Notes under the pieces: model-generated
Told to the model about the DNA's origin: nothing
Seen by the model: only the letters and a program-made list of their open reading frames with translations
Databases searched by the model: none
Translations under genes and position numbers: made by a program
Source of the DNA: Nitrospiraceae bacterium
GTDB lineage: Bacteria > Nitrospirota > Nitrospiria > Nitrospirales > Nitrospiraceae
Length of the DNA: 38,844 bases
Direction of reading: 5' to 3'
Assembly (NCBI GenBank): GCA_041563675.1
Contig: JBFGRM010000001.1
Span: 1-38,844 of the forward strand
In this document: piece by piece, positions 31,806 through 38,844 of the stretch
Layout of the letters: each line of letters opens with the position of its first letter
Position numbering within the stretch: position 1 is the stretch's first letter

Positions 31806-32576
31806 CTACATGAACTTCATGAACTTGTCCTTGGCCTCGTCCATCACCTCGGCCGTCACGCTCGTGGCGCCCTGCTCGCGCGCCAGCCGTTCGATTTCGC
31901 GCCGCGCCATCGGGCGGATGAAATCCGGAATATTATCGAGCCGCCGCTCCGCTTCCGGGGACCAGGCGATGCCGTTCGACTCGTTCTTGGAGTCGTCCAT
32001 CACTTGCAGGGTGATGCTCTTGAACCCCCGCTTGCGGGCGTAGGCTTCGACGCTGCTCTGCACCATCGGTTTTACGAAGGACGGAAGGCGATCCAACCGT
32101 TCCTTCGCATCCGGCGTCCAGGTGAAATCTGACGCGCCGCCCTGTGAGCCCGCCGACGCCCCCGTGCCGGTCAGCCCCATCTGGGCGACCATTTCCGAGA
32201 ACGGACACCCCCCACTCGACTTCTCCCCCTCCGAGGTGGTCGGAGAGGAGTTGCTCGGGGCCTCGGCGGCCGTGCTCCCGACGGGTTGCCCGCCGTGGAT
32301 TTTCTCGTTCAGATAATTGGTCATCTGATCCGCGCCGGCCAGCGCATCCTCCTTGAGCGTCCCTCTGGTCATCTCGAAGGGCTCCGCCGGCGCCGATCGA
32401 CCGCCGAGCTTGACGCCCAGGGAGCTGACCATCTGGGTTTCACCCGGGTTGGTCACCATCGAGAATTTCGCCCCGCAGGAGGGGCAGCCGAAGAAGACAC
32501 CCAGGGATCCCTCCGCGGGCTTCTCGACTTTTTCGAAGCTCATGTAGGTTTCGCAGTTGAGACAGACAAACTTCAT
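31806..32576 (-). CDS. Zinc-ribbon protein with two C-terminal PCP_red-type domains
   Basis: The N-terminus is CLNC-N17-CPSC. A Ser/Gly/Ala-rich linker contains GGCPF. The two domains are FTWTPDAKERLDRLPSFVKPMVQSSVEAYARKRGFKSIT and IAWSPEAERRLDNIPDFIRPMARREIERLAREQGATSVT. Confidence 0.8.
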   Translation of the reverse strand: MKFVCLNCETYMSFEKVEKPAEGSLGVFFGCPSCGAKFSMVTNPGETQMVSSLGVKLGGRSAPAEPFEMTRGTLKEDALAGADQMTNYLNEKIHGGQPVGSTAAEAPSNSSPTTSEGEKSSGGCPFSEMVAQMGLTGTGASAGSQGGASDFTWTPDAKERLDRLPSFVKPMVQSSVEAYARKRGFKSITLQVMDDSKNESNGIAWSPEAERRLDNIPDFIRPMARREIERLAREQGATSVTAEVMDEAKDKFMKFM

Positions 32577-32649: not shown

Positions 32650-33570
32650 TCAGAGCTTCTCGGCGAGCACTTTCTTGTAATCCAGAATCGTCGTCACCCG
32701 CTCGGCAATGTCCCGGTAGCGTTGAATGGTCGGGTAACTTTCGTCCAGCAGCGGGGTCCCTTTGTCGAAGGTCCGGGCCAGGGTGCGATCGAACGGGATC
32801 CGTCCGAGCAGGGGCACGCCCATGGCCTCGCACAGTGCGTCCGTGTTGCCCTCGAAGAGCTCGTGCTCCGATCCGCAGCTCGGGCACCGGTACGAGCTCA
32901 TGTTCTCGACCACGCCCAAGACCTTGATGCCCAGGTCGCGGGCATAGGCCACCGACTTTTGGACGACGTCGGAGGCGACCTCCGACGGGGTCGTGACCAC
33001 GATCGCGCCGGCAAGATCAGGGATGAACCCGGCGATGACCGGCGGCTTGTCGGCGGCCGCGCCCGGAGGGAGGTCGGTCAGCAGAAAGTCCAGATCACCC
33101 CAGAGAACATCGGCGAGGAATTCCCGGATCACGTTCATCTCCATCAGGCCCAGCCAGACCGGGCTGACGTCCATCGGCCCTTTCCAGCGCACCGGGGCGG
33201 CAGCCTGGAGAAAGAAGTCCATCGAGCCGACCTTGATCCCCAGCGGGCCCACCGGTGGGGTCGCGCCCTCGGGCGTCATGGTGAGCTGCTGCCCGTGCAT
33301 CCCCAGCATGCGGGGGACGCAGGGACCGTTCAAGTCCACGTCGAGGAGGCCCACGCGCTGCCCCTGGCGGGCCAGCGCGAGCGCGAGGTTCACGGTCGTC
33401 ATGCTCTTGCCGACGCCGCCCTTGCCGCTCATGACCACGAGTTTATTGCGGATCCCGGCCATGCGGCTCTGCACCTGCTGCATCTGCCCGGTGATCTGCT
33501 GGACGACCTTGGCGTCGTCGCTGTACTGGAGCCTATTGAGGATGCTCTTGAGATCCTTATCGTCTGCCAT
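32650..33570 (-). CDS. Mrp/NBP35/ApbC-family P-loop ATPase (Fe-S cluster carrier)
   Basis: The deviant Walker A is SGKGGVGKSMTTVNLA. Also LLDVDL.GP, DLPPG, and the CPSCGSEHELF cluster-bridging Cys pair. Confidence 0.9.
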   Translation of the reverse strand: MADDKDLKSILNRLQYSDDAKVVQQITGQMQQVQSRMAGIRNKLVVMSGKGGVGKSMTTVNLALALARQGQRVGLLDVDLNGPCVPRMLGMHGQQLTMTPEGATPPVGPLGIKVGSMDFFLQAAAPVRWKGPMDVSPVWLGLMEMNVIREFLADVLWGDLDFLLTDLPPGAAADKPPVIAGFIPDLAGAIVVTTPSEVASDVVQKSVAYARDLGIKVLGVVENMSSYRCPSCGSEHELFEGNTDALCEAMGVPLLGRIPFDRTLARTFDKGTPLLDESYPTIQRYRDIAERVTTILDYKKVLAEKL

Positions 33571-33653: not shown

Positions 33654-35528
33654 TCAGATCGAGTATTGGAACACCGGCTGGTCGCCGATCGCCGTCGCCA
33701 GGATGCCGCTGCGCTTGAGCTGCTCGATGACCTGCCGCGCCGCCTCGTCGAAGTCCTCCGGCCCCGCGAAGGCGAGATCGGCGTCCGGCGGAGCCGCCTC
33801 CTGACCTTTGCTCATGTGAACCGACACCACCGGGGCCGGGTAGACGAGCGTGCGAATGATCTGCTCCGCCTCCTGGTGATCGTGGCCGAACGGGTTGGTC
33901 GTCGAGATGACGATCATCCCGGTGTCAATGAGCAGTCGCGCCACCTCTCCACAGCGCCGGGCCGCCTCCGTCGACTCCGCGCTCGCATCCGCCCCCAGGT
34001 CCGCGTCCAGCCCGTGCTTCAGGTTCTCACCGTCCAGCAAGTAGGCATGGCGTCCTTCGGCCACGAGGAGGGACTCCAGCTTTCGCGCCAGAAAGGCCTT
34101 GCCGGTGTTCGCCGCCCCCGTGAAGAGCACGATGGCGGCGCGATGCCCGTAGTGGCGGGCGCGGTCTTCAGGCCGAACCTCCCCCTTGACCCATGCGAAA
34201 TCACGCTCGCGCGCCTCGTTCCGCAAGACTTCCTGTTCGTCGTGGACCAGCGCCGTGATGATGCCGCCACCGGAAATGTCGTATTCGTCCACCAGGACGA
34301 AGCGTCCGCTGTGCTCGAAGGATGTGGAAAGGTCGAACGCGATCGGGGATCTCGTGCGGATGGTGACCTCCGCCACCTCGTTGCGTTGCACGTCCCGTCT
34401 GGCCCGCTCTTCACCCAGGTTGGCCGCCGACACGATGCGATGGACGGCAGCGATCTCGCAGGCGACTTCGCGGGTTGCCAGGCGCAGGACGTAGCGTCGG
34501 CTGCCCTGTAACGGCCGCCTTCCGAGCCAGAAGACGTTGGCCTTCAACGCCGTCGACACGAGGGGGAGCGCGGCCTCATGCGAGGCGATCTCACCGCGCT
34601 CGACGAAGATCTGCTCGTCCAGCGTGACGCCGATCGACTCCCCCGCCTGCACCTCCACGGGAGGCGGCTCGATGTTGAAGGCCTCGATGCTCTTGACCAT
34701 GGCTGTCTTGTTGGAGGGCGAGAACACGAGCCGGTCGCCCACCCGCAAGCGCCCGGCGGCGATGCGGCCGGCGAGAATCCGTCGGGCGTCGAATTTGTAG
34801 ACGTCCTGCACCGGAAATCGGAGAGGCTTGTCGGCCCTGGCCGTCTCTTTCTTGAAGAGGCCTAGGCTGTCCAGCACCGTCGGCCCGCTGTACCAGGGCA
34901 TCCGCTCGCTGGGCGAGGCGATGTTGTCCCCCATCTTCGCGCTCGCGGGCAGGACGCGGTCGGGGACGACATTCAAAGACGACAGGTATTCACGGTACTC
35001 CTTCTCAATACCGTCGAAGACATCCTGCCGGTACCCCACCAGATCCATCTTGTTGACCACGACCGCCACCTGCTTGACGCCCAGAAGGGAAAGCAACAGA
35101 CCATGCCGTCTCGATTGATCCCGGACGCCTTCGAGCGCATCGATCACCAGGACCGCGGCCTCGGCTCTGGCCGCCCCCGAGACCATGTTCTTGAGGAACT
35201 CCTTGTGGCCCGGCGCATCGATGATGATGTACTGGCGTCCCCGCCATCCGAAGAACGTCCGCGCCGTATCGATCGTGATGCCTTGCTCTTGCTCTTCCAG
35301 GAAGGCGTCGAAGAGGAACGCGTATTCGAACTCCTTCCCCTGCTGCTGGCAGATCGCACGGACCTTGTCCAGCTTGCCGACCGGCAGGGAGTCCGTGTCG
35401 GCATACAGGCGTCCCAGCAGGGTCGACTTGCCGTGATCGACGTGCCCGACGATCACGATGTTCATATGCTCCGCCGCTTTTTCCTGAAGTACAGGCGTGG
35501 TTTCCGTGGTCACCGTCATCCTCTTCAC
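33654..35528 (-). CDS. cysN: Sulfate adenylyltransferase subunit 1 (CysN GTPase) fused to an APS-kinase-like C-terminal domain
   Basis: The GTPase motifs are [15 protein letters not shown] and NKMD. The C-terminal ~180 aa align to CysC but carry altered motifs: [21 protein letters not shown] and ISTTNPF. Confidence 0.9.
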
Positions 35529-35589: not shown

Positions 35590-36387
35590 CTACATGTAGC
35601 CATCTTTACGCAGCAACTCCATCCCCCGGCCCTCATCCTGGGCGCGCCCGGACCGCTCCGCCACGTTGGTCTTCCTCAGCTCCTCGATAATGTCGTCCAC
35701 GGTCCTGGCTGTGGATCGGATCGGGAACGTGCAGGGGGCGCATCCCAGGCTTCGGTATCGCGTGCCCTCGCCCTTATCCAGGTAGAGGTCGATGAAGGGA
35801 ATGCTTTCCAGTTTGATGTATTCCCAAATGTTGATCTCCGTCCAATCCAGCAACGGATGGATGCGAATGTGCGTCCCGGGTGGAAAGAACGTCTTGTACT
35901 GGTCCCAGAGCTCGGGCGGCTGATCCCGGAAATCCCAATCGCTGTTCTTGTCGCGGGGTGAAAAATACCGTTCCTTCGCCCGCGTGCCCTCCTCGTCAGC
36001 GCGCACGCCCAGAATCAGTCCCGTATAGTGCTTGTCCCTGAGCACCTGCTTGAGCCCGTCCGTCTTGAGCGCGTTGCAGCAGGTAACGCGCCCGAGGGTG
36101 TGATTCATCCCGCCGGCCAGGGCTTCCGTGTTCTTCCCGATCACCAGGTTGAGCCGCCATTCGCGCGCAAGTCGGTCGCGATACTCGATCATCGCCGGAA
36201 TCTTGTAGGTGGTGTCGATATGGATGAGCGGAAAGGGCACGTGGCCGAAGAACGCCTTCCGCGCGAGCCAGAGCAACACCGTCGAGTCTTTCCCCATGGA
36301 CCAGAGCATCGCGAGGTTGCTGAAATGTTTGTAGGCCTCACGAAGAATGTAGACGCTTTGACTTTCGAGTTGCCGAAGATGGTTCAT
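35590..36387 (-). CDS. cysD: Sulfate adenylyltransferase subunit 2
   Basis: Motifs are [31 protein letters not shown] (PP-loop), IDTTYK and YRSLGC.PCT. Confidence 0.93.
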
Positions 36388-37511
36388 CGGGCCAATGCCT
36401 CCGTCGACGTGGGATTCTGCGTGACCGGCAAGCCGCCCGGCGCCTCGCCCAGTCGGGCCGCCGCCGCGCCACCGGAACTCCGGGCGCAGCGGCCCGTCTG
36501 AAGGGTCCCGAGCTTGCGTGCCGCGGCCCCGGATTCAAGCGCATGCCGGACAATGGGAAGCGCGGCTCGAAGGGAGGCGGCTTTCCCGGACGCATAGAGG
36601 AGGTGAGCGGCGTTCAGCAGGACCCAGTCGCGCTGACCACCTCGCACCTCGTTGGTGAGCAACCGCCGGAGCAACTCCGCTTCCTTGTCCGCGGACCCGG
36701 ACGCCGGCCTGGCCATGACGCGTTCCTCCGCCGCCTCCAGTCCCACATCGCGTGGGTGAAGAGAGAACGGGGTCATGCGCTCCCCGCGCAGCTCGAGCGC
36801 CTTGGTGCCGGAGGAGATGGAGAGCTCTGACGTGCCCTCGACGCCTCGGACGATGAGGGCATGCTCCGCACGCAGCATCGTGAGGGCCTCACCGGTCTTT
36901 TCGAACTGGGCAGCCTGGGCGACGCCGATGACCTGGGCGCGCGCCCGCGCAGGATTCAGCAGGGTGGCCACCACGTGAAACACATTGCGCAAGCCGAACT
37001 CTCGGCGCAGATCGAGGAAGCGAGCCACGGGCGGGTGGTAGAGGGCGATGTCCAGGTACGCAAAGCCGAGTGAGGCGACGGCCGTAGCCGCGGCTGCGGC
37101 ATCCCCATCCACCGGGAGGCCCAACTCCCCCAGGAGCGAGCCCGGCCCGGTCCCACCGTCCGCGGCGTCATGACCGTGCATGAGGATCGTCGCGCCAGCC
37201 GAGGCCGCTGTGATGGCGGCGGCGATCGAGGCGTGAAAGGTCTCGCGTTTTTCCCCGTACCACGGAAGGTCGACGAGGGGAAGGTCGCGGGGCACGGCCA
37301 CGCGCGGGACATACTCTCGGGTCGTCGCTGTGAAGGCGGCCAGCTCCGCCACGGACTCGATCTTCACGCGCAGTCCCAGCAGCAACGCGCCCACCTGGGC
37401 GGGCGTGGCCTGCTGCTCGATCAGCATGCGCGCGGCCTGCTTCGCCTCCTCCCAGGTGAGGTCCTTGCTCGCCTTCTGTCCCTTACCGATTTTCGCGATC
37501 AGCTCGTGCAT
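36384..37511 (-). CDS. Anthranilate phosphoribosyltransferase-like protein (glycosyltransferase family 3 fold) lacking the PRPP-binding motifs
   Basis: The N-terminal helical bundle is [36 protein letters not shown]. The core aligns to TrpD, but GTGGD becomes PWYGE, KHGN becomes MHGH and G.DE becomes GTSE. The ATG shares nt 37511 with the upstream stop (TGATG), and the stop overlaps the cysD ATG (ATGA). Confidence 0.75.
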
Positions 37512-38005
37512 CAAAATGTCATCACCTGGTCCGCCGTCATGACTTCCTCTTTCCAGAAGGCCTCGGCCGCCTGCACCTCGTCCAACTCCGGGATCAGCTT
37601 GTCGATCGTCATCTCGAACAGCCCCAGGGAGCGTTGGCAGACGGAGAACTTGGCATCCCCGCGTTCCTTGATCTCACGCAGCAGGGCCGGCAGATCATCC
37701 CGTTTCTCTTCCTGCAGCATGTCGCGGATTTTCGACTCTCGCCCCTTGAACGCCTCCGAGAGAACGATGTCCCGCACCTTGTCCACGCTCAACCGTGCGA
37801 CGGCTTCGTCCCTGAACAACATGCTGACTTGGACGCCCGATTCCGCCGCGATGCGGGCAAACTCACAGGCCTGCAGGAGGTTGTTGTAGGCCCCCCGCGT
37901 CAAAATGATCGCCACCTTCTTCACGTCCTTTACCTCTTGCTCCGGCTGCGTAGGGCGCGATTCCTTTGCACGAGGCCCCGAGCCTTTCTTGAGGATGATC
38001 TTCAT
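37511..38005 (-). CDS. DsrE/DsrF-like family protein (COG2210-type, 'peroxiredoxin family' sulfur-carrier-like)
   Basis: Motifs are KKVAIILTRGAYNNLLQACEFARIAAESGVQVSMLF and the C-terminal AKFSVCQRSLGLF. ATG 38005 overlaps the cysH stop (ATGA at 38002-38005). The ORF-track extension to 38098 would overlap cysH by 97 nt. Confidence 0.6.
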   Translation of the reverse strand: MKIILKKGSGPRAKESRPTQPEQEVKDVKKVAIILTRGAYNNLLQACEFARIAAESGVQVSMLFRDEAVARLSVDKVRDIVLSEAFKGRESKIRDMLQEEKRDDLPALLREIKERGDAKFSVCQRSLGLFEMTIDKLIPELDEVQAAEAFWKEEVMTADQVMTF

Positions 38006-38712
38006 TGATGAAGCCCGCACTCGGTCTTGGGCCGGTTTTGCCAGCGGCCCGAACGGGAATCCTCTCCGGGCTCCACCGGCGCCGTGCAATGGGTGCACCC
38101 GATGCTCGGGTAGTTCCGATCGTGCAGCGGGTTGTACGGGACCTCATGGACCTGGATGTAGGCCCAGACGTCCGCGGCCGTCCACTTCGCCAAGGGGTTG
38201 ACCTTCACCAAGCCGAATTTGTGATCCCATTCGACCAGTCCCGCCTGTGCGCGCGAGGGAGCCTGGTCCCGACGAATGCCCGTGATCCACGCGTCGTAGC
38301 CACGTAGGACCCGGGACAGGGGCTCGACCTTGCGCAGGGCGCAGCAGCGGTCGGGATCACGCATCCACAAGGCCTCACCGTGCTCCCGTGCCTGCCGTTC
38401 CGGCGTCAGAAGCGACTTGACCTGCAGCACCTGCTCGGGGCGAAGGCCGTACCGTTCAATGACCCGGTCCCGTGTCGCGAGTGTCTCCGGGAACAGAAAA
38501 TCCGTGTCGAGGTAGAAGAGCGGGGTGTCCGGCTTGAGGCGGTGAATCATGTCGACCAGGACCACGTCCTCTGCCCCGAAGCTGCACGCCAGGATCACCC
38601 GCGGAGTAAAGCGCTCCAGCGCATCGGCCAGGACATCCTGTGGCTGCCGTGCTTCGAAGGAATCGCTGAGCGCCTTCAGGTCAGCTTCCGTTGGTCTCAC
38701 ATTCGTCGACAC
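38002..38712 (-). CDS. cysH: Adenylylsulfate (APS) / PAPS reductase, thioredoxin-dependent; the Fe-S-cluster subtype, which points to APS as substrate
   Basis: The PP-loop-like motif is ACSFGAEDVVL. The paired Cys motifs CC (DRCCALRK) plus CxxC (SIGCTHC) are characteristic of [4Fe-4S] APS reductases. The C-terminal catalytic motif is ECGLH. Start is GTG 38712, with GGAGA upstream. Confidence 0.9.
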   Translation of the reverse strand: MSTNVRPTEADLKALSDSFEARQPQDVLADALERFTPRVILACSFGAEDVVLVDMIHRLKPDTPLFYLDTDFLFPETLATRDRVIERYGLRPEQVLQVKSLLTPERQAREHGEALWMRDPDRCCALRKVEPLSRVLRGYDAWITGIRRDQAPSRAQAGLVEWDHKFGLVKVNPLAKWTAADVWAYIQVHEVPYNPLHDRNYPSIGCTHCTAPVEPGEDSRSGRWQNRPKTECGLHQ

Positions 38713-38750: not shown

Positions 38751-38844
38751 CTACCCCTCGACCTTCTCGACGAGGACCTTGTAGTGCTCGGCGCTCGGTT
38801 CGAGCGGTTCTTGCAGAAGGACCTTGTGTCCGTCGTTCTGCAAG
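38751..38844 (-). CDS. 3' end of an unidentified CDS (31 codons, stop TAG at 38751-38753) immediately upstream of cysH
   Basis: The minus strand translates as ...LQNDGHKVLLQEPLEPSAEHYKVLVEKVEG*. It lies 38 nt from the cysH start, so it is probably co-transcribed. A sulfite reductase would fit the context, but nothing in the 31 residues proves it. Confidence 0.4.
   Translation of the reverse strand, partial: LQNDGHKVLLQEPLEPSAEHYKVLVEKVEG

Follow-up and report, generated by a model that had tools for sequence, protein, structure and literature searches.

A TrpD-like protein with a replaced active-site pocket encoded in a sulfate-assimilation operon of Nitrospirota

What is a gene whose relatives carry the name anthranilate phosphoribosyltransferase (TrpD) doing inside a sulfate-assimilation operon? 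The question is raised by a contig of 38,844 nucleotides from a Nitrospiraceae bacterium (GenBank assembly GCA_041563675.1, contig JBFGRM010000001.1, positions 1 to 38,844 of the forward strand; the window is this whole stretch), which carries a TrpD/TrpD2-like gene that we label X. The explanation that best covers the observations as a whole is that X encodes a TrpD-like accessory component of sulfate activation, a reading to which we give a probability of roughly 45%.

36384..37511, minus strand: X, 375 aa, ATG at 37511, alternative TTG at 37514, TGA stop at 36384-36386

From the list of open reading frames and the sequence, the frame at 36384..37514 on the minus strand is real, and its likely start is the ATG at 37511, since the members of its database cluster have the corresponding 375 residues. 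Residue numbers below refer to the ATG-start protein.

X matches two Pfam families and no others, Glycos_transf_3 (1.8e-40) and Glycos_trans_3N (1.3e-13). A phmmer search against the sequences of PDB entries has TrpDs alone as its best matches (4yi7, 8e-39) and ranks Escherichia coli YbiB, the TrpD2 protein, far below them (about 1e-11), and the alignment of X to solved TrpD structures spans residues 16-339. An AlphaFold model built on 56 relatives (pLDDT 82, pTM 0.84) superimposes in Foldseek on TrpD structures with target-normalised TM scores of 0.87-0.92, and TrpD (EC 2.4.2.18; PDB 4HKM, 1ZVW, 1O17) is the best match in both structure and sequence (TM 0.90 with 4hkm; 25-31% identity). The model indicates that X has the full two-domain fold of TrpD and the phosphoribosyltransferase-III (PRT-III) superfamily, with a helical bundle followed by an alpha/beta domain. 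An earlier note on this DNA, made from the sequence alone, had aligned X with TrpD along its length including the N-terminal bundle, and all of these comparisons agree with it.

37311..37511, minus strand: N-terminal helical-bundle domain, aa 1-67 (PF02885 residues 4-67 of the 376-aa TTG-start translation; alignments)

The pocket of X departs from this likeness. We mapped it by alignment to the residues of Mycobacterium tuberculosis (Mtb) TrpD given in a review, from which the roles of G107-D111, S119, N138, R193 and D251/E252 were taken: G107-D111 (GTGGD) bind phosphoribosyl pyrophosphate (PRPP), N138 binds both anthranilate and PRPP, R193 contacts anthranilate, and D251/E252 bind Mg (PMC9835598). 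In X, GTGGD is replaced by (P)WY-GE in a loop one residue shorter, and KHGN by MHGH, in which His-Gly is kept and Lys and Asn are lost; across the X clade the Lys is M or L and the Asn is Y, H or V. SSKSGS becomes DGGTGPGS, and DGLDEIS becomes EGTSELS, losing the Asp of the Mg-binding DE pair and keeping the Glu. Within the FNLLGPLTNPA region FN is changed to FH and GPL to ATL, and the NP pair is kept. In Mtb numbering X retains H136, R193, E252 and the NP motif, whereas GTGGD, K135, N138, N117, the S142/S143 loop and D251 are replaced by a different conserved set. The exchanges to PWYGE, MHGH and TSE, and the segment corresponding to NxxGPLxNP (aa 169-188), had been read correctly in the earlier note, and neither profile nor residue alignments place GTGGD or KHGN at shifted positions.

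37233..37265, minus strand: loop beta1-alpha5, aa 83-93, in place of GTGGDGxxTFN; P83 and Y85 100%, K88 99%, H93 97%
37170..37181, minus strand: MHGH, aa 111-114, in place of KHGN
37032..37058, minus strand: YLDIALYHP, aa 152-160, in place of F(L/M)FAPxxHP; Y152 (97%) and D154 (96%) clade-specific
36948..37007, minus strand: segment aa 169-188; R169 (Mtb R193, the anthranilate-site Arg) and NP kept
36819..36848, minus strand: segment aa 222-231, in place of HGxDGxDEhS; E229 (Mtb E252) kept, equivalent of D251 lost

The same positions were compared between 276 proteins whose loop reads P-x-Y-[AGS]-[GE]-[KR], which we call the X clade, and 92 canonical TrpDs carrying GTGGD.

Position 83: X clade P 100%; canonical TrpD C/V/A
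Position 85: X clade Y 100%; canonical TrpD G 100%
Position 88: X clade K 99%; canonical TrpD G 52%
Position 93: X clade H 97%; canonical TrpD N 97%
Position 111: X clade M/L; canonical TrpD K 100%
Position 112: X clade H 100%; canonical TrpD H 98% (kept)
Position 152: X clade Y 97%; canonical TrpD F 98%
Position 154: X clade D 96%; canonical TrpD F 84%
Position 159: X clade H 94%; kept from canonical TrpD
Position 169: X clade R 98%; kept from canonical TrpD
Position 179: X clade H 84%; canonical TrpD N 96%
Position 199: X clade H 97%; canonical TrpD variable
Position 205: X clade K 97%; canonical TrpD variable
Position 225: X clade E 98%; canonical TrpD D 57%
Position 228: X clade P 91% (Ser in the window protein); canonical TrpD D 100%
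Position 229: X clade E 99%; canonical TrpD E 100% (kept)

As judged from the alignment, all of the signature positions line the PRPP/anthranilate pocket at the hinge between the two domains. P83, Y85, K88, H93, H112, Y152, D154, H159, R169, K205, E225 and E229 form a nearly invariant set among the 276 relatives, and the ratio of nonsynonymous to synonymous substitution rates (dN/dS) against two close relatives is 0.13-0.16 for the core of X and 0.055 for cysD. Because the replacement residues are nearly invariant and the core is under purifying selection, we conclude that the pocket has been retooled and maintained and is not dead; the earlier description of it as stripped does not hold. The lineage of the window carries the Y-G-E-K variant of the loop, which is otherwise typical of a separate marine or Nitrospirales subfamily.

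Does X nevertheless belong to TrpD, or to TrpD2? There are more than 1000 homologues, the best 120 of which are 56-99% identical to X and come, where a source is named, from Nitrospira, Nitrospiraceae or Nitrospirota, with the one exception of Petrachloros, which shows the synteny typical of Nitrospira. The sequence of X is present only in DNA metagenome runs (marine or sediment) and in no RNA runs. Every relative with a function name given by its source is called anthranilate phosphoribosyltransferase (several dozen were listed, and the clade has at least 276 sequences). On the NCBIfam model for TrpD, TIGR01245, X scores 203.8 bits against a cut-off of 199.05, and the clade representative P0151 scores 191.2 bits. 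Because X barely exceeds the cut-off and P0151 falls below it, the database name appears to be an accident of the threshold, and we regard the TIGR01245 match as a borderline false positive. Membership of PRK09071 (150 bits, cut-off 257), PRK07394 (123 bits, cut-off 287) or PRK08136, the YbiB family (102.9 bits, cut-off 185), was rejected, the scores being well under the cut-offs.

A profile search of 1.84 billion cluster representatives recovers a single representative of the core family (592 bits), followed by a ladder of proteins with a Y-x-G-K loop at 230-363 bits, then a YDGK group, and then the canonical TrpDs. The family profile is nearer to canonical TrpD (hhalign score 302, 31% identity) than to YbiB (131, 20%). 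A neighbor-joining bootstrap tree unites the canonical TrpDs at 98% support and leaves X outside them; grouping of the YxGK proteins is weak (28%), the YDGK proteins branch off at the base, and YbiB forms the outgroup on a long branch. This is a distance tree with weak internal support, and we do not claim monophyly of the YxGK clade. From these comparisons X is best described as having a TrpD-like backbone and what looks to be a TrpD2-like pocket, belonging to neither curated family; it is part of an uncharacterised, Nitrospirota-wide clade of the TrpD/TrpD2 (PRT-III) superfamily.

The surroundings of X in the window are those of sulfate assimilation. APS below is adenosine 5'-phosphosulfate, and the profile matches identify both immediate neighbours as the earlier note had named them, a DsrE-like gene and cysD.

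38002..38712, minus strand: cysH, thioredoxin-dependent APS reductase type (NF002537, 278 bits; TIGR02055, 235.5 bits against a cut-off of 235.3)
37511..38005, minus strand: DsrE-like gene, 164 aa, ATG at 38005 (Pfam DsrE, 32 bits)
35590..36387, minus strand: cysD, sulfate adenylyltransferase small subunit (NF003587, 356 bits); start overlaps the stop of X
33654..35528, minus strand: cysN fused to a divergent APS-kinase-like domain (Pfam GTP_EFTU and APS_kinase; NF004035, 452 bits against a cut-off of 715)

By their overlapping stop and start codons the four genes cysH, DsrE-like, X and cysD are tightly coupled: the stop of cysH and the start of the DsrE-like gene overlap as ATGA (38002-38005), the ATG of X shares one nucleotide, the A, with the TGA of the DsrE-like gene (37513-37511), and the TGA of X and the ATG of cysD overlap as ATGA (36384-36387). 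By annotated coordinates, X also overlaps its downstream neighbour by 4 nt in loci L001 and L091, the neighbour in L091 being sat.

This arrangement is conserved. The family pattern matched 305 species in total, and the 84 loci fetched first comprise 80 GTDB species representatives, all of them Nitrospiraceae or Nitrospira, and four contigs from metagenomes or metagenome-assembled genomes (MAGs). All 84 read cysH-[dsrE-like]-X-cysD, and on every contig that reaches far enough cysN/cysC-like comes next; in the longer contigs mrp and a PCP_red gene usually lie downstream, and rrf2 and a sulfite reductase gene fused to TusA upstream. A scan of metagenome contigs added 22 loci, 19 of them of the close family, and the order is the same in 17 of these 19 where the contig extends, the other two, which include cysH, breaking off at X. 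Across the loci X has changed more rapidly than the genes around it, with 54-63% identity between loci (83-86% for the two closest relatives) against 81-98% for CysD. In 102 close-family loci of the Nitrospiraceae type X stands between cysH and cysD. Altogether X lies next to sulfate genes in 113 of 120 loci, and no trp genes are found near it in any of the 120. This conserved context strongly backs the suggestion of the earlier note that the role of X is tied to the sulfate and APS steps; a sensor of APS, PAPS or AMP, or a scaffold, as the note had proposed, would be a more specific and more conjectural form of that role.

These counts bear on the possibility that the databases are right and X is no more than a divergent anthranilate phosphoribosyltransferase of the organism. 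The TIGR01245 score just over the cut-off, the names given to its relatives and the retention of H112, R169 and E229 all point that way, and a comparison of canonical TrpDs with the 1.2 Mb of fetched loci and the window yields no GTGGD-bearing match that would be a second, canonical trpD. Against this, GTGGD, K135/N138, the S142/S143 loop and D251 are all replaced, X falls outside the well-supported canonical clade, some relatives miss the cut-off, and the neighbours are sulfate genes and never trp genes. We consider the database assignment extremely improbable and the label very probably wrong. With the PRPP and Mg motifs gone, the view of the earlier note that X makes no phosphoribosyl-anthranilate is likewise very probably right on this evidence, and we hold with considerable confidence that X is not a TrpD and that it is dedicated to sulfate assimilation.

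What X does there is suggested by how its neighbours vary. Divergent members of the clade, 34-46% identical to X, occur in several other arrangements. In the P0160 clade (Nitrospirota MAG; locus L088) the order is rrf2, a small AsrC-like sulfite reductase, AprA (NF005331, 814 bits), AprB-like, Sat (NF003166, 571 bits) and X, and locus L098 is arranged in the same way with a toxin-antitoxin island between sat and X. The P0163 clade (Nitrospiria MAGs; L091, L092, L099, L118) has AprA-like, Sir-TusA (the sulfite reductase fused to TusA), X and Sat. P0424 (L097) lies at the end of an operon of rrf2, sir-tusA, cysH, cysD and cysNC; P0492, of the Y-G-E-K subfamily (L096, on a 4.7-Mb contig), lies in the arrangement of the window, the DsrE-like gene included, with Sir-TusA ahead of CysH and DsrE-like, and CysD and CysNC after X; and P0157 (L094, L095) follows rrf2, sir-tusA, cysH and a gene for an NMNAT-like nucleotidyltransferase. 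X is kept while ATP sulfurylase (CysDN or Sat), APS reductase (CysH or AprAB) and sulfite reductase (Sir-TusA or AsrC-like) are swapped for non-homologous types, and wherever a sulfate adenylyltransferase gene is present in the locus X is directly beside it, the insertion in L098 being the sole exception.

Because X stays while the enzymes are exchanged, its constant partners appear to be the small molecules of the pathway and not any one protein, which favours a ligand-centred role and disfavours a scaffold specific to a single enzyme. The ATP sulfurylase reaction is thermodynamically unfavourable and product-inhibited. We propose that the retooled hinge pocket would bind an anionic ribosyl or nucleotide ligand, most plausibly APS or pyrophosphate (PPi) and possibly AMP, and that X would assist ATP sulfurylase by capturing or handing on its product, or would regulate the enzyme; X would then be an accessory subunit and not a glycosyltransferase. 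The cysH of the window is of the APS reductase type (TIGR02055) and the CysC-like domain is divergent, so that the pull of an APS kinase seems to be absent, and this apparent lack would fit assistance to ATP sulfurylase. That X binds a ligand of the activation step and specifically assists ATP sulfurylase is a tentative assignment, as is the broader idea of a dedicated Nitrospirota component without which sulfate activation would be inefficient whatever the enzyme types, and which would act either by binding APS or PPi or by converting a by-product; we would not be surprised to see either revised.

The APS_kinase match in the CysN fusion covers only profile positions 2-99 of 152, and the domain appears degenerate (P-loop; LDGEN reading). 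Its sequence is consistent with a pathway through APS and not 3'-phosphoadenosine 5'-phosphosulfate (PAPS), and with a possible regulatory or APS-binding role for the domain.

Some features of the pocket invite a different interpretation. TrpD2, that is, YbiB (PDB 4MUO, 7Y3P, 8BFR), has like X the two-domain fold without the GTGGD loop for PRPP. The N-terminal domains of X and YbiB-type proteins share the motif I-x-x-I-G-x-G-x-x-x-x-x-D-L, absent from canonical TrpDs; the loop of YbiB reads P-S-Y-N-G where X has P-x-Y-x-G; a basic residue follows the Y-x-G loop; and both have HG. The H-P-E-Y and H-G-T-E-G-E of YbiB match the clade consensus H-P-x-Y and (H/R)-G-x-E-G-(E/D), the window protein itself having QAAQ and EGT. 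The hint of the earlier note that TrpD2-type proteins are relevant was a good one, the GxGxxxxxDL, PxYxG and HG motifs being common to X and YbiB. The physiological role of YbiB is known only as far as the binding of DNA and of ObgE (PMC10123104).

X might accordingly be a polyanion binder of the TrpD2 type, with a basic groove that takes up nucleic acid or an acidic protein tail, regulating the mRNA or DNA of the operon or a partner protein. In YbiB the conserved R92 and R123 mediate binding both to DNA and to the acidic tail of the GTPase ObgE (PMC10123104), and CysN is also a GTPase. The column of R92 holds R89 in the window protein (K/R/Q/H in the clade), next to K88, which is basic in 99% of the clade; the column of R123 is R in 66% of the clade, whereas the window protein has G there and an acidic E87 in its loop. 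The clade has isoelectric points of 6.2-9.6 and a small net charge, X persists beside Sat, which is not a GTPase, and the dinG or LexA-type context is absent, E. coli ybiB following dinG whereas X sits in rrf2-sir-cysH-X-cysDN. With the low score on the YbiB model and a family profile that lies closer to TrpD, we think a polyanion binder unlikely.

A second alternative takes the conservation of the pocket as a sign of catalysis. Nucleoside phosphorylase II (NP-II) and archaeal AMP phosphorylase have the same superfamily fold as X (PF02885 and PF00591) and act with phosphate on nucleosides or nucleotides, which would suit the handling of APS, AMP or PPi; this superfamily carries out phosphorolysis and pyrophosphorolysis at the ribose C1, including that of AMP. 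X could thus be an enzyme with a new chemistry on a by-product or intermediate, such as an activity like that of AMP phosphorylase or a PPi-dependent ribosyl transfer on AMP or APS. The near-invariant polar residues H93, H112, D154, H159, H179, E225, E229, K88 and Y85 are typical of catalytic sites, and the genes beside X consistently encode enzymes whose reactions yield PPi and AMP. In contrast to NP-II, X is without the C-terminal alpha/beta PYNP_C domain and without the K-H-S-T-G-G phosphate loop, having PWYGEK instead, and no NP-II chains are among the phmmer matches to PDB or the 50 Foldseek matches listed. X has lost one Mg ligand and both of the glycine loops that bind phosphate, the pathway has no obvious missing reaction, and the conversion of AMP and PPi to adenine and PRPP is thermodynamically unfavourable. 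We rate such an enzyme as distinctly unlikely.

The genes further along the operon raise a third alternative. Two downstream partners in the window are co-linear with the sulfate operon in most of the related loci, and the sulfite reductase gene of relatives is upstream of cysH, in a position that would lie past the window end at 38844.

32650-33570, minus strand: Mrp/ApbC-type Fe-S carrier, downstream operon partner
31806-32576, minus strand: protein with two PCP_red domains, downstream operon partner
L005:4269-6764, L016:4202-6712 and L001:6754-9243: Sir-TusA upstream of cysH

The PCP_red protein has an N-terminal CxxC...CxxC zinc ribbon, and PCP_red is the tetrapyrrole-capping domain of the protochlorophyllide reductase BchB; this protein and Mrp may help to mature the cofactors of Sir or CysH. 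X could act with these two proteins as an assembly factor that matures or stabilises the siroheme/Fe-S sulfite reductase or the Fe-S APS reductase. In favour, none of the sulfate-linked arrangements lacks a sulfite reductase gene, the operon carries both proteins, and two distant members of the clade lie next to cofactor genes, P0162 beside CbiX (sirohydrochlorin chelatase family) and P0158 beside an A-type Fe-S carrier. X adjoins the adenylyltransferase gene and not sir in most arrangements, however, and has no conserved Cys; we know of no precedent for a TrpD fold in cofactor delivery. This explanation we regard as improbable.

Several observations also weigh against the reading that we prefer, a TrpD-like accessory component of sulfate activation. 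The assignment of a ligand comes only from the ancestry of the pocket and the gene context, and the motifs shared with YbiB could equally indicate binding of a polyanion or nucleic acid. The lineage of the window (P0001-P0006, L005, L006) has changed two near-invariant features of the clade, HPPY at aa 199-202 (36906-36917) to QAAQ and R120 (37152-37154) to G, so that its site may work differently or less well. Four distant members (P0156, P0158, P0161, P0162) are away from sulfate-activation genes: P0156 adjoins VKOR/DsbA and DUF309, the context of P0161 is uninformative, and for P0158 and P0162 a role in cofactor maturation is the better fit. Wherever the source of a clade member is named it is Nitrospirota, and because the operon was inherited from common ancestors the contexts look more independent than they are.

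In an earlier survey of the genome neighbourhoods of this InterPro family only three contexts were described, those of TrpD, DeoA and YbiB (PMC5445326), and the literature searched nowhere reports that sulfate-assimilation clusters contain a TrpD-like gene. We regard X as a GTGGD-less PRT-III protein in which both the well-defined signature and the tie to this pathway are new. Sulfate assimilation is textbook knowledge, and the list of its components is taken to be complete. A protein that stays in the operon throughout a phylum, even as each catalytic enzyme gives way to a non-homologous type, suggests that a function is missing at the thermodynamically difficult activation step. If our reading is right, the TrpD2-like branch would gain in X its first member with a physiological role and a ligand; X is a tractable entry to the biochemistry of that branch, and a clean example of an enzyme pocket that has been retooled rather than lost. 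The systematic error in databases that it exposes can mislead metabolic reconstructions, for instance when a tryptophan pathway is scored as complete and is not. The principal nitrite oxidisers of soils, waters and wastewater plants are Nitrospira.

The C-terminal end of X behaves differently from its core.

36387..36479, minus strand: C-terminal tail, aa 345-375, disordered and fast-evolving (pLDDT below 50; dN/dS 0.65-0.78)

The tail is nearly neutral by dN/dS against the same two close relatives that gave the values for the core. The earlier note had described a low-complexity C-terminus of about 45 aa; a tail is present and disordered, and its length is about 31-36 aa. Its tip, aa 367-375 (36387-36413), is kept among close relatives as PTSTEAL[AT]R, reading PTSTEALAR in the window, and survives a 24-aa deletion in the linker of L006; tails in the Y-G-E-K subfamily end in similarly short tips, SSP[LM]VTA, E[AT]VPA and KKVVHA. 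The tip may be a docking motif. Presence of a long tail does not correlate with that of the DsrE-like gene, the median length being 352 aa in both groups.

The DsrE-like gene itself is present in 14 of the 84 first loci and in the distant Y-G-E-K locus L096, and has a candidate active-site Cys within FSVCQRS. The sulfite reductase of relatives, which follows an Rrf2 regulator, is a single polypeptide of about 830 aa; its NIR_SIR modules are duplicated, it has a HEPN-like linker, and TusA forms its C-terminal domain. The DsrE-like gene and the fused TusA domain together suggest a persulfide relay in the assimilatory pathway.

The NMNAT-like nucleotidyltransferase next to the P0157 proteins (175 aa with a TIGR00125 domain; L094:7457-7984 and L095:7457-7984) stands where cysD or sat is expected and could be an unrecognised small sulfate adenylyltransferase. 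The island in L098 (L098:5156-8699; 3.9 kb) consists of PIN/RHH, HepT/MNT, PIN/AF2212-like and DUF2283 toxin-antitoxin modules, and a gene of the CitMHS/Na-sulfate-symporter family with TrkA_C domains adjoins X on the other strand.

Like X, the proteins of PRK09071 ("glycosyl transferase family protein"), PRK07394 ("hypothetical protein") and the YDGK group are TrpD-like, without GTGGD and with a Tyr-x-Gly-Lys/Arg loop. The YDGK proteins branch near the X clade and differ in having YDGK where that clade has Y[AG][GE]K. In this second group without GTGGD (P0169-P0171, P0174, P0177, P0182, P0183, P0197, P0523, P0524) the loop reads Y-D-G-K/R and a PPK motif is conserved; the group includes Brevibacillus proteins named anthranilate phosphoribosyltransferase; some of its members exceed the TIGR01245 cut-off (P0169, 225 bits; P0183, 211 bits), and these proteins are probably misannotated as well.

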